From positions 1 to 52,913 of the IMG/VR virus record IMGVR_UViG_3300044729_002905: a DNA stretch of 52,913 nt; one strand, given 5' to 3'. How positions within the stretch are numbered: position 1 is the first letter of the stretch; every line of letters begins with the position of its first letter. Positions 3,960 through 46,774 of this stretch are shown here, piece after piece. A model generated the notes under the pieces. It made no database searches and was not told the DNA's origin. It worked only from the letters and a program-made list of their open reading frames with translations. Made by a program: the position numbers and the translations under genes. Source of the stretch: a virus (Duplodnaviria; Caudoviricetes).

Positions 3960-4417
3960 TGAAGAACCGTTTTACCGACCTAGAACTTGGTATTGTAACC
4001 TTAAAAAATTATAAAGAAACGTTACCGGAGTCTCTTGCGGTTCAAGTTGAGATGTTTCTGCCCCCATCCGGCTCTTTTGATGACCCGACCTTGCGTAGAT
4101 ACCTAGAAAACTTAAAAAACTATGAAGAAGAGGACCCAAGTTTTGCAATGACCCTGGCAAACAGGTTGCGAATGGCGTTCCAAGACATGACACCCGATAC
4201 GATCTGTGGAAAATTCCCTAATGCAGACCTTCCCTTAAAAAGAAGACTCCGTTGTGTGGCTGAATATCTTATCAGAGCCGGAGAATTTGACAAAATGAGG
4301 GATGAAAACGGTAAATTATTAAAGAAACGCGGTGTTCTTGGTAAGTTGGTCGTTATTTACCAGCCGTTACCCAAGATGCGTGATACACTTATTCGTCAGG
4401 GATTGGTAAAAAAATGA
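3956..4417 (+). CDS. Hypothetical protein
   Basis: 153 aa, overlap-coupled to both neighbours. Confidence 0.65.
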   Translation: MMKNRFTDLELGIVTLKNYKETLPESLAVQVEMFLPPSGSFDDPTLRRYLENLKNYEEEDPSFAMTLANRLRMAFQDMTPDTICGKFPNADLPLKRRLRCVAEYLIRAGEFDKMRDENGKLLKKRGVLGKLVVIYQPLPKMRDTLIRQGLVKK

Positions 4418-4812
4418 ATCGACGTGAAAAATTAATTGCTTCAGTGATCGGACCAGAGCTGGAAGAAGATAAAGCAAAGATGTTGGATGCAACACTCCGT
4501 TTAATCCTTGGAGACATGGGCGGAATGTTCACAAAGTTTTGGGAAGCCGAAGGTCCTGGGGTTATGTGCTTCCAACCCCAGCAAGTAGAGCGTTCGATGT
4601 TTTACTTGACACTTAAAGAACTGCACGCTGCACAAGAAGAGTGTGAACGTGACAATAACGGTGATCTGGCGGAAACTTTTAGACGGATTCTTAACGCTGC
4701 ACAGAAGATTAATCCAGAAGAAAAAGCTGGTTATGTCTTAAATGATCAAGATGGTATTCGCTATTTGGAAATAGCGAATGACCAGACAAAAGATGTGATG
4801 ATCAAAGACTGA
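4414..4812 (+). CDS. Hypothetical protein
   Basis: 132 aa, coupled stop/start with neighbours. Confidence 0.65.
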   Translation: MNRREKLIASVIGPELEEDKAKMLDATLRLILGDMGGMFTKFWEAEGPGVMCFQPQQVERSMFYLTLKELHAAQEECERDNNGDLAETFRRILNAAQKINPEEKAGYVLNDQDGIRYLEIANDQTKDVMIKD

Positions 4813-5405
4813 TGCCTGCTTTTCTTGGTAACAAAAAAGTTGAAAACTACGAGTGGATCAGTAATCGTGACATGATTGATTCCGCTCATTTGCTGATGGG
4901 CGGTATTGATCTGGATCCAGCTAGCTCAGCAAAAGCTAACGAGTATGTCAACGCCAAGAAATTTTACACACCGAAGGAAGATGGTTTAAACGAGATGGAG
5001 TGGCATGGGAATGTGTATGTGTTCCCTCCACGCCATTCCTACTTTTGGCATGAGCAGTCCCAACGGTGGAAGATGACCAGGGGTTTGTCTCCAACGTTGA
5101 CTTCTGCTTATGCACTTTGGTGGCGCACTTTAAAAAGAAAGTGGGTCTCTGGTGAGATCGAACAGGGTGTGTATTTTGCCAATGCACCTGACATGTTTCT
5201 GTACTGTCAAGATATTTTCGATCATCCAATCTGTATCTTGAAGACGAGACCTATGCTGCATCAGCATTTTATTAACACAGGTGAGATCAAGGTTCGGAAT
5301 ACGTGCGCTTCTTTTGTTGTATTTCTTCAACCCAAAACAAATGTGACGGAAGCTACCGAACACTTTGTTGAGATTTACAGCCCCAAAGGCCGCGTTCTTG
5401 TCTGA
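4812..5405 (+). CDS. Phage DNA adenine methyltransferase-like protein with a divergent catalytic motif
   Basis: 'EW...IDLDPASS..AN.YV.AKKFYT..EDGL..EW.GNVYVFPP' matches phage Dam-like MTases, but the usual NPPY motif reads FPPR. Confidence 0.65.
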   Translation: MPAFLGNKKVENYEWISNRDMIDSAHLLMGGIDLDPASSAKANEYVNAKKFYTPKEDGLNEMEWHGNVYVFPPRHSYFWHEQSQRWKMTRGLSPTLTSAYALWWRTLKRKWVSGEIEQGVYFANAPDMFLYCQDIFDHPICILKTRPMLHQHFINTGEIKVRNTCASFVVFLQPKTNVTEATEHFVEIYSPKGRVLV

Positions 5406-19044: not shown

Positions 19045-19842
19045 TCAGTTACTCACAATACGGTTGACGAGATAGGCTTCGATATCGTTGTAACCAGGAG
19101 CTTCATCCGGTTGGATGTAGCAGACTTCAACCACGAAGTAACCAGTACGACCGGCAGCTTTGTCAGCGGCAGAAATGTACCAGCCAGGAGCCGTACCAGA
19201 GGTGGTGGTAGAAGCGGCGCGAGTGAAGACGCTGTAAGTAGCAGCAGCAGTGTGAGGCTTGTAGACGTTACCATCGGTAAGACCAACAGCACCGCTAACC
19301 ACAGGCACAGGCACAGCAGAAACAGCAGCAGTACCAGCGGCAAAGAAGACTTCGCCTTCTTGACTACCGGAAACGGTGGACGACAGGTTGACCTGGGCCA
19401 CACCTTCACCAGAAGCTGCGCTGGAAACAAGACCAGTAGCGAACGAGATCACGCGACCAGTGGTGGTATAAACACCGGAAGCAACGCGACCATCGCCCCA
19501 ACCCGAAGCAACCGACATCGCAGTGCGATACACGTAGATGGGATAAGTGGAAGAACCACTGATCACCATACCGGTGATGTCAGTACGGGTGTCGTCTTGA
19601 CGATAAGGGGAAGGAACAATAACGCTACCAGAAGCAACGGCGCCATCACCAGAGGTGTTGGTAACAGCAACGTAACCGCGCTGCTGGAAGTAACGATAGC
19701 CAGGGATAGCAAGAACCGAAGTAGGACCTGCTTCTGAACCGTCGTTAGTACCGCTGTAATCGGTATCAATATTCTTGTACCAACCGTTAAGAGGCTCTGC
19801 CCAGTTGCCGGGGTAGATTTTTTTAGACGAAAGGTAGGACAT
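19045..19842 (-). CDS. Capsid decoration or minor structural protein
   Basis: Directly after the major capsid gene with an AGGAGA RBS; Ser/Thr/Gly/Ala-rich. Confidence 0.6.
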   Translation of the reverse strand: MSYLSSKKIYPGNWAEPLNGWYKNIDTDYSGTNDGSEAGPTSVLAIPGYRYFQQRGYVAVTNTSGDGAVASGSVIVPSPYRQDDTRTDITGMVISGSSTYPIYVYRTAMSVASGWGDGRVASGVYTTTGRVISFATGLVSSAASGEGVAQVNLSSTVSGSQEGEVFFAAGTAAVSAVPVPVVSGAVGLTDGNVYKPHTAAATYSVFTRAASTTTSGTAPGWYISAADKAAGRTGYFVVEVCYIQPDEAPGYNDIEAYLVNRIVSN

Positions 19843-19875
19843 TTATTTCTCCTTTGTGTATGTTTACGTTATAGA

Positions 19876-21027
19876 TCAGACGGTACCGTCGTCAGAGACA
19901 AAGCTGTAAGCAGTCGTGATGAAGTCTTTGTTCAGCACTTCAAAACCAGCGTACAGTTGCCAAATCAAGATGATGAAACGGCTGAAGTCATCGTTGTTAT
20001 TGATGAGCACCTGAGCGTTCGGACCACCGATACCAACACCAACGGCCTGAGGACCGAAGAAGAAGCCCTGAGCAACGTCTTGGTTGGAGTAGGAGGCGGG
20101 AGTAGCAAAGCTAGCCGAGATTTGCTTGTTGGGGAAGTTGGTCGATTCGAAGAACTTCACACCTTCAAACTGAACACCAGTCGGCATCACAGGCTCACCG
20201 GCCAGGAAATAACCCTGACCAGCTTGGGGACCCATGTAGAAGCTGGCGTTGTTAGGCATCATGGGGTTACCCATGTACATGCCTTGACCAGGATTACCGG
20301 AGTAACGAGCGATCTCACGGAAGTCGGGGTCACGACGCAGGTGCATCATGAACACGGGATCGCAAATGCAGCGATACAGACCGTCAGCGAAGGTAGGAAC
20401 GTTGCGCTTACGCAGGTCCTTAACAACATTCAGCAGGTCAGTGCGAACCGAGAATTGCTGCAGGTCAGCAGTGTACTCAGTAGCAGTGTAGGTAACTTGA
20501 CCAGAAGAGTTCTTGGTCTTACCACCAGGGAAGTAGTAACCACCTTGGGTGCTAGAAGCGGCACCATTGGCTTCTGCTTTGGACAGTTCGTCAATGAAGA
20601 CGCGGTCACGCCAACGACGATAGTCATCCAGCAGGGTGAGGCTACCGATCGACTGGTGGAACATGTTGAGATTACCGGTGTCCAGCAGAAGGCGCTGAGC
20701 GGTAATCAGGGTTTCGCGAGCAATCTTAAAGGTCGAAGGCTGGGTCGGATCGCCAGGATCAGCAGGACCGGTGTATTCGTTAAGCACCACCAGGACTTTT
20801 TCCTTGGTGATGTTACGGCTGTTAGCGGTACCGATCGTTTGGTCAGCCACGCGAGCACGGCTGTCCTTGGTCCCAGGGTTGCCCCAGAACTTATAGCGAT
20901 CAAGTTGAACGGTTTGACCGGGTTGGCGAGTAAAGTCGTGGACAACCACGGGCTCTACAGCCATCTCACAGATATAAGCAGGATGGGGACGATAAAGCTC
21001 CGCACCCAGAATCTTAGGGAAGTCGTT
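19876..21027 (-). CDS. Major capsid protein, exon 2
   Basis: The frame of the 362-aa ORF extends 21 codons upstream (NDFPKILGAELYRPHPAYICE) to the 3' splice site. Sits between scaffold and decoration genes; 'G.VKFFEST', 'FFFGPQAVG'. Spliced product is about 387 aa. Confidence 0.85.
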   Translation of the reverse strand, partial: NDFPKILGAELYRPHPAYICEMAVEPVVVHDFTRQPGQTVQLDRYKFWGNPGTKDSRARVADQTIGTANSRNITKEKVLVVLNEYTGPADPGDPTQPSTFKIARETLITAQRLLLDTGNLNMFHQSIGSLTLLDDYRRWRDRVFIDELSKAEANGAASSTQGGYYFPGGKTKNSSGQVTYTATEYTADLQQFSVRTDLLNVVKDLRKRNVPTFADGLYRCICDPVFMMHLRRDPDFREIARYSGNPGQGMYMGNPMMPNNASFYMGPQAGQGYFLAGEPVMPTGVQFEGVKFFESTNFPNKQISASFATPASYSNQDVAQGFFFGPQAVGVGIGGPNAQVLINNNDDFSRFIILIWQLYAGFEVLNKDFITTAYSFVSDDGTV

Positions 21028-21850
21028 CTCCTGGTCTCTAGTTTCTTAGAGGGGTGGACTATCTCTTCATCCCTGTGGGATGCCGGACGCTAAATCTGGT
21101 ATTACGTAACAAGAGCGTGTTACCCCCAGTAGTCTCTGCGCCTTCCAATCACGCTTGATTGGCTTGGCTCAGGATTACCCTCGTCTTTACGTTAGGGCTT
21201 CCCTGAATTCATCCGGTTTGCACTCACCAATTGCTCGATGAGGTGACAACGTTGAGCGTTCAGTTGAGGTATAGTAAGCCTGGAAACCTGTTCATAAACA
21301 ACATGGAACCAAAACTTGTACCTGGATTTGGTAATCTTTACTTAACTAAAGATGGAGAGGCTTTTGAAAAACGTCTTGATCCTGATAATCAAGAATATTT
21401 TAAAAGGGTTCCCATCAGTTCAACCAGTTCTTATGATCGTATTTCAGTTCTTGTTAATGGAAAAAGAAAACGTTTTCATCTTCATGTTTTGATGGCAGTG
21501 GCTTTTTTAGGATTAGATCTTCGTTCTCATGGAACAAATAACTTTTCCCTTCAAGTAGACCACATTGACAACAACAAAAGAAACAATAAGATTGAAAATC
21601 TTGAAGTTGTTACCAAACAAGAAAATTTAACAAGAGCCTGGAAAACGGGTTGTTACAAGAACAATGGTTTTGCCAGTAAAGGAAAGCCGAAGAATTCTTT
21701 GAGAAAGTTTTCTTCAGACGATGTGGCCAGAATTAAAACTTTAAAAGAAGCGGGACTTTCTTATAGAAAGATTGCTGAAAAGTTTAACTGTGGCCATGTA
21801 GCTATTTACCAAATCATTAAAGGTAATACCTACCAGGATCTGAACTAGCT
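21028..21850 (-). mobile_element. Group I self-splicing intron (823 nt) in the major capsid gene
   Basis: Minus-strand core: P GAAUUCAGGGAA, Q AAUCCUGAGC, R GCAGAGACUAC, S AAGAGAUAGUCC. The 5' exon ends in U and the intron ends in G. IGS CGUUGUCA (21244-21251) pairs with exon 1 UGAU and exon 2 AACG. Confidence 0.93.
21303..21848 (+). CDS. Intron-encoded HNH homing endonuclease, antisense to the intron
   Basis: NUMOD4-like N-terminus, 'LHVLMAVAFL...QVDHIDNNKRNNKIENLEVVTKQENL' and a C-terminal HTH. Likely start is ATG 21303. Confidence 0.9.
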   Translation: MEPKLVPGFGNLYLTKDGEAFEKRLDPDNQEYFKRVPISSTSSYDRISVLVNGKRKRFHLHVLMAVAFLGLDLRSHGTNNFSLQVDHIDNNKRNNKIENLEVVTKQENLTRAWKTGCYKNNGFASKGKPKNSLRKFSSDDVARIKTLKEAGLSYRKIAEKFNCGHVAIYQIIKGNTYQDLN

Positions 21851-21862
21851 ATCAAGAAACAC
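21851..21862 (-). CDS. Major capsid protein, exon 1 (MFLD)
   Basis: GGAGG RBS, then GTG TTT CTT GAT. The unspliced frame reaches TAG two codons later. Confidence 0.85.
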
Positions 21863-21953
21863 GTTTATTTATCCTCCAAAGGTAGGACTTTTTATCAGGT
21901 GAAAGATTCGGTCTTTGACCTCATCTAAAAAAAGTATAGCAGTTGATAATTTA

Positions 21954-22499
21954 TCAACCAAGATATTTAAGCGTAGGAGTGTAACTCCGGGCCATTTGCG
22001 TATTGCTAGAAGTGGCAAGTTCGGGATCAGCAATTACATTTTGCTGGAACCCAGGAACTCCCATTGCACCAGGAATTGCACCTGCGGCAATGCCGCCAAG
22101 TCCAGCGAGACCAGCAGCAGCAGGTACACCAAGACCAGCAGTAAGTTTTCCAACCATACGTTGAGCACCTGGACCCATTGCAGATTGTTCAGCAGCAGCA
22201 AGAACATCAGCAACTTGTCCAATTGCTTTATTACGAGTTTTTGATTCTGCAGGAATCTTGGCGCCAATATCACCAACTAGATTTGCCATTGGAGTAATCA
22301 CACGTTCCTGAGCAGCTTGTGCCATTGCAGGCGCATACTTACCGGCCAAACGTGCACCTAACAAACCAGCGGCTCCACCGGCAGCTCCACCAAGTCCAGC
22401 GAGAAGTGCTGAACCTGGATCTTCACCTTGAGAAAGGGCATAGCCGCCGGTAGCTAAACCAGCGGCAGCGGGGATACCATATTTAAGAGCGGCTCTCAT
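21954..22499 (-). CDS. Gly/Ala-rich hydrophobic protein (virion or membrane)
   Basis: 181 aa with glycine-zipper-like segments. Confidence 0.6.
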   Translation of the reverse strand: MRAALKYGIPAAAGLATGGYALSQGEDPGSALLAGLGGAAGGAAGLLGARLAGKYAPAMAQAAQERVITPMANLVGDIGAKIPAESKTRNKAIGQVADVLAAAEQSAMGPGAQRMVGKLTAGLGVPAAAGLAGLGGIAAGAIPGAMGVPGFQQNVIADPELATSSNTQMARSYTPTLKYLG

Positions 22500-22503
22500 G
22501 GCC

Positions 22504-23466
22504 TCACTCCATCACAAACAGTTTGTTTGCCAGGACTTGAGGCTGAGCTTGGTTAATGACGCGCCAGGCATTCTGGGGGTCACGAGCCATCATCTCGTTG
22601 AAAGAGCCCCAAAAGTTTTCAGGTTGCTGAGGAGCGGCTGCAGCAGGAGGAGCAGGGAACTGACCACCATACTGAGGATCAACAGGAGCAGTGCGATAAC
22701 CAGGAGTTTCGAGTTGCTGCTCACTTTCGTACACAGGGTACGGACCTTCAGGACCAAAGAACTTCAGCGTGTAATCACTAAGAACATCGGGGTTGGTCAG
22801 GATTTCGTTATAAGCCAGGTTCTCCTGGTGCTCATTAACGGCAAACTCAGCGTAACCCTTGATGGTATCAGCGGCGCGATTTCCCCACGCGACGGCGCTG
22901 TCCAGCATCCCTTCCAGATTCAGGGCGTAGTTGTTCAGAATTGCCGGTGTCTCGATTCCGAACGCGTCCATCACCTGACGGCTTTCCTGGCTCATTCCCA
23001 CCAGGTCGGCTACCTGCTCCAAGGAGGGACTCGAGGAGGTTTGGGAAGAGCTGGGCGAGTATGCCTGGTTGGGCGACCAGGTCTGCGGAGCCGATTGTTG
23101 CGTAGCTTGGCTGACTTGACCGAAGTTCGCCGGGGCGTACTGCGGAGTCGGTGCCGAGGGTTGACCCTGGAACGGGGATTGGACTGGTGCGCTCAGCAGG
23201 TTCACCACCTTGTTGAACGCCGATTCCCAAGGATTGCCCGCTGCTTCCGGTTGGGATTGGGGGGCGTACTGAGTAGGGGCTGATTGGTAACTGGGGGCTG
23301 CCTGAGGTACCGCTTGGGGGTAGCTGGTACCCACCTGGTACGCCTGTGGTGCCACCTGGTAATTGACCGGTTGGCTGGACGGAGCCGGTGCCACGTAGCT
23401 GCTGGGAGCGACTGCCGCCGGTACTTGGCTCGTCTGTGGGATCGACTGGACGGTAGCGTCCTGCAT
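22504..23466 (-). CDS. Putative capsid scaffolding protein
   Basis: Gln/Pro/Ala-rich, located between portal and capsid genes, AGGAGA RBS upstream. Confidence 0.65.
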   Translation of the reverse strand: MQDATVQSIPQTSQVPAAVAPSSYVAPAPSSQPVNYQVAPQAYQVGTSYPQAVPQAAPSYQSAPTQYAPQSQPEAAGNPWESAFNKVVNLLSAPVQSPFQGQPSAPTPQYAPANFGQVSQATQQSAPQTWSPNQAYSPSSSQTSSSPSLEQVADLVGMSQESRQVMDAFGIETPAILNNYALNLEGMLDSAVAWGNRAADTIKGYAEFAVNEHQENLAYNEILTNPDVLSDYTLKFFGPEGPYPVYESEQQLETPGYRTAPVDPQYGGQFPAPPAAAAPQQPENFWGSFNEMMARDPQNAWRVINQAQPQVLANKLFVME

Positions 23467-25216
23467 AACTCATCTCCTTTTGTAATGCTTCAAGAGTTCG
23501 ATACAGATATGGGGTTAAATCCAATCGTGGATCTGCAGCCATCGGTAAATCCGGTGATTGCGGATGAGGAGTCTGCATCATGCCCCCCACCAGGCGTGCG
23601 AACGAAGAATATGCATTCTGCAGTTCACCCACCATCCTGAACGGGAACCCAGATAACATCTCGGCCCGTTCCTCATCCGTTTTTGACGGAAAGAGGTATT
23701 TCAGTGCTTCAATGCTATCAACACCTAATTCTTGCAAGTTTCTAACAACAATCGAGTTGTTAAGAATATCTTGCGTTGAATCTTCGTACACTGGTCCGAG
23801 CCAGCGCCACTGAATAGTTAAATCCCCATCAGGGATCAAACCAAGAACACCAGGTGGAATTTGTTGTGTACGCACACAAGCCATCATCAATTGCTTGATG
23901 CGATCCTCAAAACCAACCAGAGCTTCTTTATACATCTGAACAATGCTTTCATCTGCATCGTCATCTGGTTCCACAGGTTTTTCTAAACCTGCGGCGGCGG
24001 CAAGTGTCTCACGGAACAAACGTTCTTCTTGGAAAATGATTAGTTCCAGACAGCGGCAAATACCGTAAGTATAAATAGAATTTGCTTTTTTCTTAGATGT
24101 AGCAGCAACACGACCAAACAGTGACTTGTACTCAGTTGCAGTCACACCAGCGGAAATTGACAACTCGTCAACGCCACCAAGTGCTGTACGAATCTCCTCT
24201 CGATATTGACGAGCAAACGCGTTTTGATCTCCTGTGATCGCATCTGGAACAATGTAACCAACTCGATCATTCGGCTCTAGGTTGGCAATAATTCTTGGAA
24301 CACGAATCTGACCATCCATTCCACGGCTGATCGGATCAGCCTTAAACATGGAACGACTAAGAGATGATGGGCTAGCAAACCCTGAGTTGGCAGCGATTGA
24401 TGGACGCTGCACCACGCCTTCTCCACCTGACTCGATCAAGTCAGTCTTGGGACGAGACGAAAGAAGAGTTGGGTTGCCAAAGAACTGAACATTCTTTCGC
24501 ATTGTACGAATCATCTCGTCATGCGTAACGATGTGATTAGCAAGTGCATCAAATTCACCAACACCTTCAGTAGAAAATCCTTTGGGGTTGTTAAAGATCT
24601 CTACACAAGGAATAAATCCAAGAGTGTTGCGATAAGTTTTTGTTTTGCCTGGTACCACAGAGACAGGCTGATCAAAAGAGAGTTCACCATCTGAATGAGT
24701 CTCTTCAATGGTTTTACGTTTAATCGATAATTTTATGTATTTCTTTTGGCCTGGGGTACCAAGGCCATCCATCCCTGTGATTGAAGTTTGTTGAATATCT
24801 TGATTAACGCCAAAACCGTTTTTAACTTTATAACTGTAGATAATGACAACTTCATCGAGTTCACCGTCTACGTTGTAGTAGGTACGATATTCGTGTTTCC
24901 TAAAAAAGTAAAGACGGTAATTATTTGTAGTAGGGCGAATATAAAATAAACCCTGACCATCACACAAAAAGTAATCCCAAATTGAATCAAATCTTGTATC
25001 AATTTGGTTGTATTTGACTACGCGATCAATAAAATCTTTACGTTGATTACCAAAGTTGTCCTGAGCAGGAAAAAATTCTACCCCTTGGCGAATACCAAAG
25101 AGTTTCATTTGTGCTAGGTGTGCTGCTACGACGCCGGTATCAACGCCAATTCCACCATCTTTTTCAAGATAGGAATCAACAATTTCCTTGAGCCTGGATT
25201 TAGCGTCTGCAGCCAT
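22868..25216 (-). CDS. Putative portal protein with a long C-terminal extension
   Basis: 782 aa, downstream of the terminase. 'NTLGFIPCVEIFNNP....EGVGEF' is a portal-like segment. Confidence 0.7.
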   Translation of the reverse strand: MAADAKSRLKEIVDSYLEKDGGIGVDTGVVAAHLAQMKLFGIRQGVEFFPAQDNFGNQRKDFIDRVVKYNQIDTRFDSIWDYFLCDGQGLFYIRPTTNNYRLYFFRKHEYRTYYNVDGELDEVVIIYSYKVKNGFGVNQDIQQTSITGMDGLGTPGQKKYIKLSIKRKTIEETHSDGELSFDQPVSVVPGKTKTYRNTLGFIPCVEIFNNPKGFSTEGVGEFDALANHIVTHDEMIRTMRKNVQFFGNPTLLSSRPKTDLIESGGEGVVQRPSIAANSGFASPSSLSRSMFKADPISRGMDGQIRVPRIIANLEPNDRVGYIVPDAITGDQNAFARQYREEIRTALGGVDELSISAGVTATEYKSLFGRVAATSKKKANSIYTYGICRCLELIIFQEERLFRETLAAAAGLEKPVEPDDDADESIVQMYKEALVGFEDRIKQLMMACVRTQQIPPGVLGLIPDGDLTIQWRWLGPVYEDSTQDILNNSIVVRNLQELGVDSIEALKYLFPSKTDEERAEMLSGFPFRMVGELQNAYSSFARLVGGMMQTPHPQSPDLPMAADPRLDLTPYLYRTLEALQKEMSYAGRYRPVDPTDEPSTGGSRSQQLRGTGSVQPTGQLPGGTTGVPGGYQLPPSGTSGSPQLPISPYSVRPPIPTGSSGQSLGIGVQQGGEPAERTSPIPVPGSTLGTDSAVRPGELRSSQPSYATIGSADLVAQPGILAQLFPNLLESLLGAGSRPGGNEPGKPSGDGRVRNRDTGNSEQLRPESGRDAGQRRRVGKSRR

Positions 25217-46481: not shown

Positions 46482-46703
46482 ATGATTAACTACACAGACG
46501 AACAACTACTTGCCATGGCCATGGCAAACATTGGCACTTACATTCATGACAACTCACCTCAGTACATCTTGATTGAAGACCCACGTAACGAAGATGATTA
46601 CGATACGTGGGATTACGGCTGTGAACCATTACCTCATGACCACACTTGGCAACACACATCAATTGATGTGAGTGTAAGCCCAAGTGATGGGGATGTGGCG
46701 TAA
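46482..46703 (+). CDS. Early acidic hypothetical protein
   Basis: 73 aa; the 3' end overlaps a family D element and the tRNA 5' end. Confidence 0.5.
   Translation: MINYTDEQLLAMAMANIGTYIHDNSPQYILIEDPRNEDDYDTWDYGCEPLPHDHTWQHTSIDVSVSPSDGDVA
46643..46686 (+). ncRNA. Family D element, copy abutting the tRNA
   Basis: CACTTGG-CAA-hairpin(CACATC/GATGTG)-TGTAAGC-CCAAGTG. Confidence 0.5.
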
Positions 46704-46774
46704 TCGGTAGCCGCTGCGCACTTAAAATGCGTTGACCATTGGTCGTGTCGGTTCAAGTCCGACCATCCCTACCA
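46689..46774 (+). tRNA. trnL: tRNA-Leu (anticodon UAA), intronless, with encoded CCA
   Basis: Acceptor GGGGATG/CATCCCT, anticodon arm GCGCA-CTTAAAA-TGCGT, long variable arm, GGTTCAAGTCC T-arm, ACCA end. Confidence 0.95.

Follow-up and report, generated by a model that had tools for sequence, protein, structure and literature searches.

How can a phage carry a gene, written on the opposite strand, inside the RNA helix that defines a splice site of its major capsid gene? The window (the whole stretch of DNA analyzed, 52,913 nt) comes, by sequence comparison, from a relative of Synechococcus phage S-EIVl. The major capsid gene, on the minus strand, is interrupted by a group I intron of 823 nt that follows codon 4. 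A preliminary description had placed an HNH open reading frame at 21303-21848 on the plus strand, opposite to the intron, with a stop codon 2 nt from the 5' splice site. It had located this frame between the splice site and the internal guide, so that P1 must close across about 600 nt, aided by two further pairs of complementary segments flanking the insert. All of this was borne out by the analysis below. We read the locus as a mobile group I intron between capsid codons 4 and 5, with an opposite-strand homing endonuclease gene in the loop of a hairpin that extends P1, self-expressed and homing, and give this reading a probability of about 80%. The features are the following.

19876 to 21027, minus strand: capsid exon 2, NDFPKILGAELY... 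to the stop codon (PHROG 1357 'major head protein', 1.1e-19).
21028 to 21850, minus strand: group I intron, 823 nt; the exon ends with U (21851), the intron with G (21028) (Rfam and intronless alleles).
21028 to 21222, minus strand: catalytic core, P3 to P9, with the terminal G 21028 (Rfam alignment).
21223 to 21242, minus strand: P2 hairpin, CUCAUCGA-GCAA-UUGGUGAG (compensatory changes).
21244 to 21251, minus strand: internal guide, 5'-CGUUGUCA-3' (read from the sequence; also in gene-less introns).
21252 to 21280, plus strand: promoter-like stretch, with TTGAGC at 21252-21257, TATAGT at 21270-21275 and the family second hexamer at 21275-21280.
21845 to 21840 and 21263 to 21258, minus strand: P1a, GUUCAG/CUGAAC, found in introns with and without the gene.
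21831 to 21826 and 21272 to 21267, minus strand: P1b, AGGUAU/AUACCU, the innermost helix closing the gene insert.
21303 to 21848, plus strand: HNH homing endonuclease gene, I-HmuI-like, 181 aa, ATG at 21303, TAG at 21846-21848 (Pfam, PHROG).
21845 to 21848, both strands: CTAG palindrome; the plus-strand TAG is the nuclease stop, and the minus-strand UAG (21847 to 21845) stops the exon 1 frame.
21848 to 21854, minus strand: 5' strand of P1, UGAU^AGC, with the splice site between 21851 and 21850; pairs with GUUGUCA (21250 to 21244).
21851 to 21862, minus strand: capsid exon 1, GTG start and three codons (M F L D), matching the start of intronless S-EIVl (MFID...) and intronless contigs.

The intron boundaries were set by comparison with intronless alleles. 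The capsid gene of S-EIVl starts with GTG TTC ATT GAT ACC GAC TTT, an intronless contig (L003) reads GTGTTCCTTGATAACGACTTT across the site, and the window reads GTG TTT CTT GAT ^ AGCTAG ... CCAGGAG ^ AAC GAC TTC. This comparison puts the end of exon 1 at 21851 and the intron at 21850 to 21028. Splicing after CUU, with exon 2 starting from GAG (MFLENDF), was rejected, since GAT AAC is the reading of the intronless alleles and alignment to the guide joins UGAU to AACG. Exon 2 is 88% identical to the S-EIVl capsid protein (tblastn), in a region that the S-EIVl record annotates as hypothetical proteins only, and a GGAGG lies 5' of exon 1 (21877 to 21873, minus strand). The list of open reading frames for the window calls the capsid gene minus its first four codons; capsid genes of such phages are readily called in this truncated form, which is a warning for annotation.

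The comparison covered 55 distinct sequences of intron plus gene from 84 sources (83 loci, some contigs being sampled twice, and the window). Rfam model RF00028 matches the minus strand at 21303 to 21035 with 89 bits (gathering score 50), and a gene-less relative (L029) with 92 bits. The intron core is about 75% identical to introns of other phages. Related cores also occur elsewhere, in a Vibrio phage terminase and in a Klebsiella jumbo phage tRNA region, and no homologue bearing an open reading frame was found among these. Subgroup IA is defined by one or more extra helices (P7.1/P7.2) between P7 and the 3' strand of P3. The Rfam alignment has a 38-nt extra hairpin at this position (CUGG-GG-GUAAC...GUUAC-GUAAUA-CCAG), which would place the intron in subgroup IA; as a single extended hairpin is seen, no assignment to IA1, IA2 or IA3 was made. 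P2 shows compensatory changes from U-A to C-G in 13 and from C-G to U-A in 3 of the 55 distinct introns. The first intron bases are AGCUAG or AGCUAA in introns with the gene and AGCUGG in the two without it, and unspliced RNA read from exon 1 gives MFLDS followed by a stop.

The 5' splice site is complementary to a guide about 600 nt away. P1 has a U-G pair at the splice site, with U 21851 opposite G 21247, and all 7 of its pairs are invariant in 55/55 distinct introns. Next to this wobble partner, the UCA of the guide pairs with exon 1, and CGUU (21251 to 21248, directly 5' of the wobble G) pairs with AACG of exon 2 as P10, with 4/4 pairs invariant in 55/55. Eight contiguous guide bases thus pair with UGAU and AACG; because neither P1 nor P10 ever varies, support for both is complementarity, with no covariation. 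Since the nuclease gene lies between the 5' splice site and the guide, P1 closes over about 600 nt. AUCGAG (21239 to 21234) was also considered as a guide; it forms six pairs with CUUGAU, but with U-A at the splice site, and it was rejected because relatives show it to be one strand of the P2 hairpin. The P1 placed by Rfam was uninformative in the window and in a gene-less intron alike.

Two further helices bracket the gene, both present as originally proposed and both with compensatory changes. P1a shows one double change from G-C to A-U and no mispair in 55 distinct introns. P1b changes from A-U to G-C in 9/55 and from U-A to U-G in 35/55, with 9 non-pairing cells out of 330; gene-less introns have AAACAAAU/AUUUGUUU at its position. 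The minimum-energy fold of the 852-nt precursor holds both helices; the centroid fold does not keep the long-range closure. The pattern of changes supports closure of the gene-containing loop by P1a and P1b. The last nine codons of the nuclease gene and its stop codon are the complement of the 5' strands of these helices.

The gene itself appears to be functional, as judged from intact copies, low dN/dS and invariant residues. The reading frame is intact in 55/55 distinct copies, and the median dN/dS is 0.10 (1468 sequence pairs with dS > 0.05; median dS about 0.6). In 17 aligned copies, H87, D89, N90, N94/N95, N99 and N108 are invariant, and the motif DH..N....NN....N..VT aligns with I-HmuI. 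The protein matches Pfam HNH_3 (PF13392; E 4.7e-10, 39.4 bits versus a cut-off of 24.8) and PHROG 59 'HNH endonuclease' (1.5e-26). I-HmuI is the best sequence match in the PDB (E 1.5e-4) and the best fold match of the predicted model (pLDDT 80.6; E 2.4e-6 over 191 alignment columns). Residues 134-173 have matches to HTH_7, HTH_38 and HTH_23, each below the Pfam cut-off, and the model has four helices at 138-180. The enzyme is predicted to be an I-HmuI-like HNH nuclease with a putative C-terminal helix-turn-helix part. Its gene has 34% G+C, versus 53% for capsid exon 2. No paralogue was found in the window's record beyond the single copy, and no Shine-Dalgarno sequence was seen 5' of the nuclease ATG.

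The inverted arrangement is general in this family. An antisense gene within P1 recurs in all 55 distinct sequences, and the opposite orientation, first noted in the window, was found in 79/79 loci holding both gene and core (80 loci were sampled by the HNH gene, and the 80th ends at a contig end). Viral contigs carry three alleles at the same site: intronless, with a 276-nt intron lacking the gene, and with an intron plus antisense gene. Among the best 80 capsid loci, 62 are intronless, 10 have intron and gene, 2 are gene-less and 6 have an intron interrupted by the contig end; all 18 intron-bearing loci have the insertion at GAT^AAC. The two 276-nt introns (L029 and L034) share P1, P1a and the guide with the longer ones; at the precise position of the gene they have a small hairpin of 18 nt. 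On the capsid tree, intron presence requires at least 13 changes for 19 carriers (shuffle mean 17), at least 10 of them on well-supported branches, and the nearest neighbours of the window include both intron states. Presence/absence polymorphism at one site, scattered on the capsid tree, characterizes the intron as a mobile (homing) one.

RNA libraries contain the joined form. Contigs in two such libraries, from two studies, join 21026/7 to 21850/1 and omit exactly 823 nt, and a single DNA run gives an unbranched passage through the intron. A 2465-nt viral contig (L006) has the same joined form with identical flanks, so an intronless relative, or DNA in the libraries, may be the source of the RNA-library joints, which are not proof of splicing. 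Contigs from RNA runs also cover the nuclease region and the core; as contigs they do not distinguish RNA from DNA and carry no strand, expression level or start sites, and gaps in their cover are not informative.

The position of the nuclease gene favours a promoter of its own: it is the only real plus-strand gene in a minus-strand block from about 7.9 to 36.5 kb. The preliminary description had suggested TATAGT at 21270-21275 as promoter. Its letters are present and a promoter-like motif is conserved in the family, but the conserved second hexamer begins 5 nt further downstream and TATAGT has no usable first hexamer, as its distances to TTGAGC (12 nt) and GTGACA (20 nt) do not fit. The family motif is TTGAGC-N14-TGn-TAnnnT, with TAnnnT found 17 nt after TTGAGC in 49/55 distinct introns and TGn before it in 48/55. 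The middle three bases of the second hexamer take more than 10 forms, and T, A and T are constant. The lineage of the window comprises 4 distinct sequences, itself and the 3 nearest relatives; in it, TGn is TAG and the second hexamer TAAGCC. A sigma-70 two-hexamer scan gave no site near 21270 in the window and 2 sites inside the nuclease reading frame (no more than in shuffles, mean 2.3), and no terminator-like site was found. Gene-less introns have TAAATT at a distance of 16 nt from TTGAGC, which shows how readily hexamers of this kind arise in this A+T-rich loop. Overall, the motif suggests that the nuclease gene has a promoter-like element of its own, degraded in the window.

These observations can be combined into a mechanism. 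By sequence and comparison, the capsid pre-mRNA contains a 545-nt antisense copy of the nuclease gene that P1a and P1b loop out, and the guide GUUGUCA, although about 600 nt downstream, thereby meets the 5' splice site (UGAU^AGC). P10, formed by CGUU and the start of exon 2 (four bases), aligns the exons as usual, and their joining would give MFLD-NDFPK. In the inferred later steps, the nuclease would be made from its own plus-strand transcript, with a promoter that lies within the complement of the P1 extension. During mixed infections it would nick or cut capsid alleles lacking the intron, close to GAT^AAC, and repair would copy the intron in. As the preliminary description suggested, this orientation might uncouple nuclease expression from the late capsid transcript, and the nuclease transcript might pair with the capsid pre-mRNA. 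Because exon 1 has only 12 nt, a ribosome that initiated before splicing would sit on the P1 strand, and splicing therefore probably precedes translation. Translation of the unspliced RNA would end at the in-frame UAG formed by intron bases 4-6.

Several alternatives concern how, or whether, the gene is expressed. The gene could be real but silent or nearly so in the window's lineage, its promoter damaged and the intron a passenger that only has to splice. The TAG-TAAGCC sequence in place of TGn-TAnnnT in all four lineage members and the lack of a two-hexamer match in the window fit this idea, and the lineage copies are too alike to reveal selection (dN 0.002 and dS about 0 between the window and L086, its closest relative sampled). 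On the other hand, the reading frame is intact in 4/4 distinct lineage sequences, and a new TATAGT beside the lost hexamer could act alone as a -10 element; lone -10 promoters without a -35 element may function in cyanobacteria. We regard silence as unlikely. Alternatively, the nuclease could be expressed by read-through or from a plus-strand start farther upstream, opposite the core or exon 2, with TAnnnT kept for a reason at the RNA level. The motif does lie in the complement of the P1 extension, where its conservation could serve the ribozyme, and TTGAGC is the complement of an invariant GCUCAA beside the guide that gene-less introns share. Still, T, A and T stay fixed amid freely variable neighbours, a search of the intron strand for bases that pair with them gave none, and the approximately 13 kb upstream hold no other plus-strand gene, which makes a distant start improbable. 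It is very improbable that the gene lies outside the ribozyme's P1, with a local guide at the 5' splice site forming P1 and the downstream element being separate. The Rfam alignment puts a weak 'P1' at 21299 to 21277, beside the core, but this helix is mispaired and adjoins no exon, and in the gene-less intron the alignment also stops short of the splice site. By eye, no guide of the type GU[CU][AG][AG]G is present in the first 70 intron nt. The distant guide, in contrast, fits both exons over its eight bases and is used by the 276-nt introns. A local P1 at the splice site, which the preliminary description had named as a finding that would count against its reading, is unnecessary and was not found.

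Other alternatives concern why the inverted gene is kept. The antisense unit might benefit the phage, either through a transcript that times capsid production or through a nuclease that acts as a weapon against co-infecting relatives. A plus-strand transcript running past the stop codon would complement the splice site, exon 1 and GGAGG, and retention has been long (median dS about 0.6) and under strong purifying selection. The intron nuclease of PhiPA3 interferes with a competing phage, according to the account in PMC11620839. However, ordinary homing with patchy gain and loss accounts for the distribution, and 62 of the closest 80 capsid loci thrive without the intron, and we consider a phage benefit quite unlikely. 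A related and doubtful idea is that the capsid gene and the inverted nuclease gene, as convergent partners, regulate each other. The nuclease transcript, started from a promoter within the complement of P1, would then complement the capsid ribosome-binding site, exon 1, the 5' splice site and P1a/P1b; early, homing would be allowed while premature capsid splicing and translation were blocked, and late in infection the strong transcription of the capsid gene would run into nuclease expression and switch it off. If true, the splice-site helix of this phage intron would also serve as promoter and antisense switch.

Under our preferred reading of a self-expressed, homing intron, the locus departs from familiar phage systems. 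Phage group I introns are the textbook partnership of intron and nuclease. To our knowledge, phage intron nuclease genes run in the same direction as the host gene. A same-direction nuclease gene forces elaborate control so that ribosomes spare the ribozyme fold. A widespread freshwater cyanophage lineage appears to use another design, an inverted gene with a promoter-like motif of its own, placed in the helix that defines the splice site and 12 nt past the start codon of the late gene with the highest expression. This design has been stable (55 distinct variants, synonymous divergence about 0.6, dN/dS 0.10), and intronless alleles and gene-less introns provide natural controls in the same population. 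In cyanophage psbA (S-PM2, F-CphI), a free-standing nuclease gene with its own expression signals lies beside a group I intron, the two apparently united secondarily; unlike that case, the nuclease gene here is inside P1 and inverted.

The gene for I-HmuI is on the same strand as its intron. The nuclease described here is likewise a phage group I intron nuclease with the same protein architecture (181 versus 174 aa), but the two are only about 21% identical, and its gene is on the opposite strand, in a P1 extension. I-HmuI is cited as a nicking enzyme in PMC3706429. Another intron system compared lies in a DNA polymerase gene rather than a capsid gene; its nuclease is intron-encoded, and the passages describing it report no antisense arrangement. 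Self-splicing group I introns in major capsid genes are cited for Lactococcus phage Tuc2009 and mycobacteriophage LittleE (PMC3706429), at insertion sites unrelated to that of the window. The LittleE intron has a putative homing endonuclease, but one described as related to the LAGLIDADG-type I-CreI, and the passages on it make no mention of an antisense gene (PMC3706429). In the openly accessible full-text literature, we found no phage or bacterial group I intron described as carrying its nuclease gene in antisense, and no report that the capsid gene of an S-EIVl-like phage contains an intron. The words 'antisense', 'opposite' and 'orientation' are absent from a review of bacterial group I introns (PMC3984707). 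In the literature covered, descriptions of antisense intron nuclease genes were found for nuclear rDNA only.

The closest parallel is with nuclear rDNA introns, as the preliminary description had stated. Antisense homing endonuclease genes are described for Dir.S956-2 of Didymium iridis and Dsq.L2066 of Diderma squamulosum (PMC9548176, PMC3679873, PMC3073962), in agreement with that statement. There too, according to these passages, the nuclease gene is opposite to the ribozyme and inside a peripheral helix, with P1 among the listed insertion sites, and an internal promoter of its own has been proposed, to which the candidate promoter-like motif would correspond here. The nuclear enzymes are described as His-Cys box proteins made from Pol II transcripts with spliceosomal introns and poly(A), spatially apart from Pol I. 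The window's intron, in contrast, lies in a protein-coding late gene of a phage; its enzyme is of the HNH type, its promoter-like motif is bacterial-type, and the two RNAs are not kept in separate compartments. It may be a bacterial-type counterpart to the puzzle posed by nuclear rDNA introns, of how an antisense intron gene is expressed without harm to the host transcript.

The capsid gene of the window is interrupted by a group I intron in which an inverted HNH gene is looped out in an extension of P1. Rfam reports a single such intron, on the minus strand at 21303..21035 (89 bits versus a gathering score of 50). The listed capsid ORF begins at an internal ATG (20964), and its frame is open further upstream, to 21045. 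The boundaries were set by comparison with Synechococcus phage S-EIVl, the sole isolate matched in the phage collection (stretch searched: 19800-22600), which is 84% identical to the window's capsid region in DNA and 88% at the protein level. Its capsid gene is uninterrupted: GTG TTC ATT GAT ACC GAC TTT CCT AAG (MFIDTDFPKIL). Read against this start, exon 1 of the window has four codons, GGAGG-N10-GTG TTT CTT GAT at 21877..21851, and exon 2 resumes 823 nt later with AAC GAC TTC CCT AAG from 21027. The intron occupies 21850..21028, with U preceding it and G as its last base. An in-frame 3' splice site CAG|GAG was ruled out, as the guide layout fixes GAG|AAC. The preliminary description had the HNH gene running opposite to the intron, with its stop codon 2 nt from the 5' splice site. 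Both points hold (plus-strand ORF 21303-21848, stop codon 21846-21848), as do all its other statements on the sequence itself.

In this 52.9-kb virus genome fragment, every credible gene from ~7.9 to 36.5 kb is on the minus strand, apart from the nuclease gene. Other long plus-strand ORFs there were rejected as shadows of G+C-rich minus-strand genes. The virion gene region contains the following features.

25216..22868, minus strand, portal-like virion protein (PHROG 20475)
23466..22504, minus strand, 320-aa protein
22499..21954, minus strand, 181-aa Gly/Ala-rich protein
Minus strand, major head protein (PHROG 1357, E 1.1e-19)

A tRNA lies at 46689-46771 (plus strand; Rfam 53.8 bits), and has the anticodon loop CUUAAAA; its variable region carries an 11-nt insertion. 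In the S-EIVl deposit KJ410740 (~60784-62010), the capsid region is annotated as two 'hypothetical protein' ORFs, one short and on the minus strand, the other a shadow on the plus strand, and the full 383-aa capsid ORF (5225..4074 in the S-EIVl locus compared, L001) has no annotation of its own.

In the core, P7 and the 3' strand of P3 are separated by an additional hairpin, a trait of subgroup IA, and the intron is IA-like with a classical guide. Its core shares ~75% identity with introns of jumbo phages (Klebsiella and Escherichia) and of Vibrio phages; identity to the psbA intron of Synechococcus phage S-CBWM1 is 72%, across a shorter segment. In Vibrio phage 1.187.O (MG592553 60594-64447, L163) the terminase gene is annotated as three pieces, with two stretches like the window intron core between them and a GIY-YIG gene just upstream; the terminase gene looks twice interrupted.

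The guide, 5'-CGUUGUCA-3' (21251..21244), is downstream of the extended hairpin and complementary to the ligated exon junction. Its UCA pairs with exon UGA, G 21247 is opposite the splice-site U, and in the precursor GUU pairs with intron AGC, giving a P1 of 7 pairs. After the first step, CGUU of the guide pairs with exon 2 AACG (P10). The next element is P2, CUCAUCGA-GCAA-UUGGUGAG.

The preliminary description had suggested that extra complementary segments, P1a (GUUCAG/CUGAAC) and P1b (AGGUAU/AUACCU), close the loop over the gene. Pairs were counted in 55 distinct gene-bearing introns, drawn from 83 loci (some contigs sampled twice) and the window. P1 and P10 are invariant. P1a shows a single double change, from G-C to A-U, and is free of mispairs, P1b has 9 A-U to G-C and 35 U-A to U-G changes with 9 non-pairing cells, and P2 has 13 U-A to C-G and 3 C-G to U-A changes. 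In the 852-nt precursor, P1a and P1b are closed across the insert in the minimum-energy fold and absent from the centroid fold. The compensatory changes and the minimum-energy fold bear out the suggestion, and the closing helices are under selection. Rfam places P1 poorly in long and short introns alike; we attribute this to the model's limitations and do not take it to indicate a local P1.

Relatives place the gene inside the P1 loop, as had been claimed. A capsid-protein scan of viral contigs confirmed 596 relatives. Among the best 80, 62 are intronless (GAT AAC/ACC/AAT GA at the site), 10 have the full intron with HNH gene (821-827 nt), two (L029 and L034) have a 276-nt intron without the gene, and in six the 5' part of the intron is lost at a contig end, one of these (L058) retaining part of the HNH gene. 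There are thus three allele classes at one site. The L029 intron reads GAU|AGCUGG-GUUCAG-GUCCUGGU-AAACAAAUUUAUUUGUUU-CAA-CUGAAC-GCUCAACGUUGUCACC, and L034 differs by a few bases. In the window we find GAU|AGCUAG-GUUCAG-AUCCUGGU-AGGUAU-[gene]-AUACCU-CAA-CUGAAC-GCUCAACGUUGUCACC. Thus the gene cassette sits in place of the tip of a hairpin beginning 5 nt past the splice site. The antisense orientation recurs among relatives: an HNH-protein scan found 117 relatives, and in 79 of the best 80 the gene is adjacent to a ribozyme core on the opposite strand, the 80th locus being cut by a contig end.

The stretch was matched in 20 public runs, six of them lake-water metatranscriptomes, and contigs from three of these six RNA runs and one DNA run were compared with it. 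Two of the RNA runs, each from a different study, contain a contig in which 21026/7 is connected directly to 21850/1, with exactly 823 nt missing, alongside intron-containing contigs of similar depth. The DNA run has a single contig through the intron, with no branch. The same joined sequence occurs in a 2465-nt viral contig (L006) with flanks identical to the window's exon junction. This contig starts just 60 nt upstream of the junction (bases 1-290 compared) and represents either a DNA allele lacking the intron or a spliced transcript that was assembled. Contig joints do not tell RNA molecules from DNA, and the joined contigs are compatible with splicing at the predicted sites, short of proof.

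The 181-aa product of the plus-strand ORF matches Pfam HNH_3 (E 4.7e-10), PHROG 59 'HNH endonuclease' (1.5e-26) and, each below its Pfam cut-off, three helix-turn-helix families. With an AlphaFold2 model (pLDDT 80.6), the sole Foldseek match below E 0.001 was I-HmuI (2.4e-6); the protein is one of the I-HmuI-like HNH enzymes. Its HNH residues do not vary across 17 aligned copies, and all 55 distinct copies keep the frame of 181 codons and a common stop codon (start codon ATG in 54, GTG in one). Median dN, dS and dN/dS are 0.062, 0.605 and 0.10 (1468 sequence pairs with dS above 0.05), showing purifying selection. The G+C content of 34%, versus 49% in the core, 53% in capsid exon 2 and 43% in the window, points to a foreign origin of the gene. 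Its final nine codons and stop are the complement of the P1a/P1b 5' strands, which exist in gene-less introns too. The stop codon is inside a CTAG palindrome that ends the nuclease on the plus strand and, as minus-strand UAG, the exon-1 frame of unspliced RNA (MFLDS*); gene-less introns have CCAG/CUGG in its place.

The plus-strand TATAGT that had been proposed as promoter of the nuclease gene is present at 21270-21275, overlapping the P1b 3' strand, but it is no conserved -10 element, because relatives differ in its first two bases (C at position 1 in 35/55 and G at position 2 in 15/55 distinct introns). In the window its distance is 12 nt to TTGAGC and 20 nt to GTGACA. Family-wide, the plus strand carries a promoter-like motif, TTGAGC-N14-TGn-TAnnnT, with TAnnnT 17 nt past TTGAGC in 49/55 distinct introns and TGn before it in 48/55; T, A and T are constant, and the three middle bases take >10 forms. 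TTGAGC is complementary to the conserved GCUCAA strand running from P1a to the guide. The window lineage (4 distinct sequences) has a degraded motif, TAG-TAAGCC at 21272-21280, and a consensus promoter scan of the window listed no site at TATAGT or the degraded motif. Gene-less introns have TAAATT 16 nt past TTGAGC, and no Shine-Dalgarno sequence was found upstream of the nuclease ATG, so that we can reasonably infer a putative plus-strand promoter only for the family. RNA-library contigs of runs X15 and X16 contain a second intron variant, which matches the window core as far as 21255 and departs from it there, inside the P1a 3' strand and the promoter-like region (loose end CTACTCAGTTAAGGCATGCTAAC...). 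This variant represents another allele, whose hexamer is of the family's TGCTAA type.

Upstream of the capsid start, at 21933-21961 on the minus strand, TTGGTT (21961..21956) and TATACT (21938..21933) are separated by 17 nt containing a perfect palindrome, GTTGATAAATTATCAAC (21958..21942). S-EIVl keeps the palindrome, with TAAAAT instead of TATACT (L001 ~5325..5300). The site, a candidate capsid promoter or operator, was not listed by the consensus promoter scan. Between it and GGAGG is a hairpin, GGUCAAAGA-CCGAA-UCUUUCACC (21898-21920, minus strand). S-EIVl has a different one, AGACAA-TC-TTGTCT, at the same place; structure is therefore kept and sequence is not.

Intron presence was mapped on a capsid exon 2 tree built with FastTree (81 rows, omitting the first 60 nt beside the site). 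To account for the 19 carriers, a minimum of 13 state changes is required, with no fewer than 10 falling on well-supported branches; with shuffled labels the average is 17. The window's nearest neighbours are L004, with intron, and L006, L003 and L005, without. This patchy distribution fits repeated homing and loss, or recombination. Intron-bearing alleles all read UUGAU|AACGA. Intronless alleles vary at codons 4-5 (GAT AAC, GAT ACC, GAT AAT, GAT ACT, GAC AAC; L003-L082), and in some of them codon 5 is ACC, ACT or AAT, codon 4 is GAC, or the two changes occur together. Such variants would weaken P1 or P10 and may be resistant nuclease target sites.

Under the mechanism we propose, the nuclease would be transcribed from its own predicted plus-strand promoter, against a 28-kb minus-strand gene block, and would nick or cut intronless alleles near GAT^AAC, the intron being copied in by repair. 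Because exon 1 is only 12 nt, a ribosome initiating there would sit over the P1 5' strand, and splicing and initiation on one molecule would therefore be mutually exclusive. The UAG at intron bases 4-6 would release ribosomes that start too early. Inversion would free the ribozyme from the ribosome conflict of sense-oriented intron genes (discussed in PMC3984707), at the cost of convergent transcription and, possibly, RNA duplex formation with the capsid leader.

Capsid-gene introns are known from Tuc2009 and LittleE (PMC3706429), and an HNH-bearing intron from cyanophage Pf-WMP3 (PMC3428280). Full-text literature covering few subscription journals yielded no earlier report of an intron in S-EIVl-like phages and no antisense nuclease gene in a phage or bacterial group I intron, and the passages of a review of bacterial group I introns retrieved by term mention no phage or bacterial antisense case; a prior report is possible. 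In nuclear rDNA introns, nuclease genes are known in antisense orientation and P1 is known to serve as an insertion site (PMC3679873, PMC9548176, PMC3073962), and the window intron has both features in common with them.
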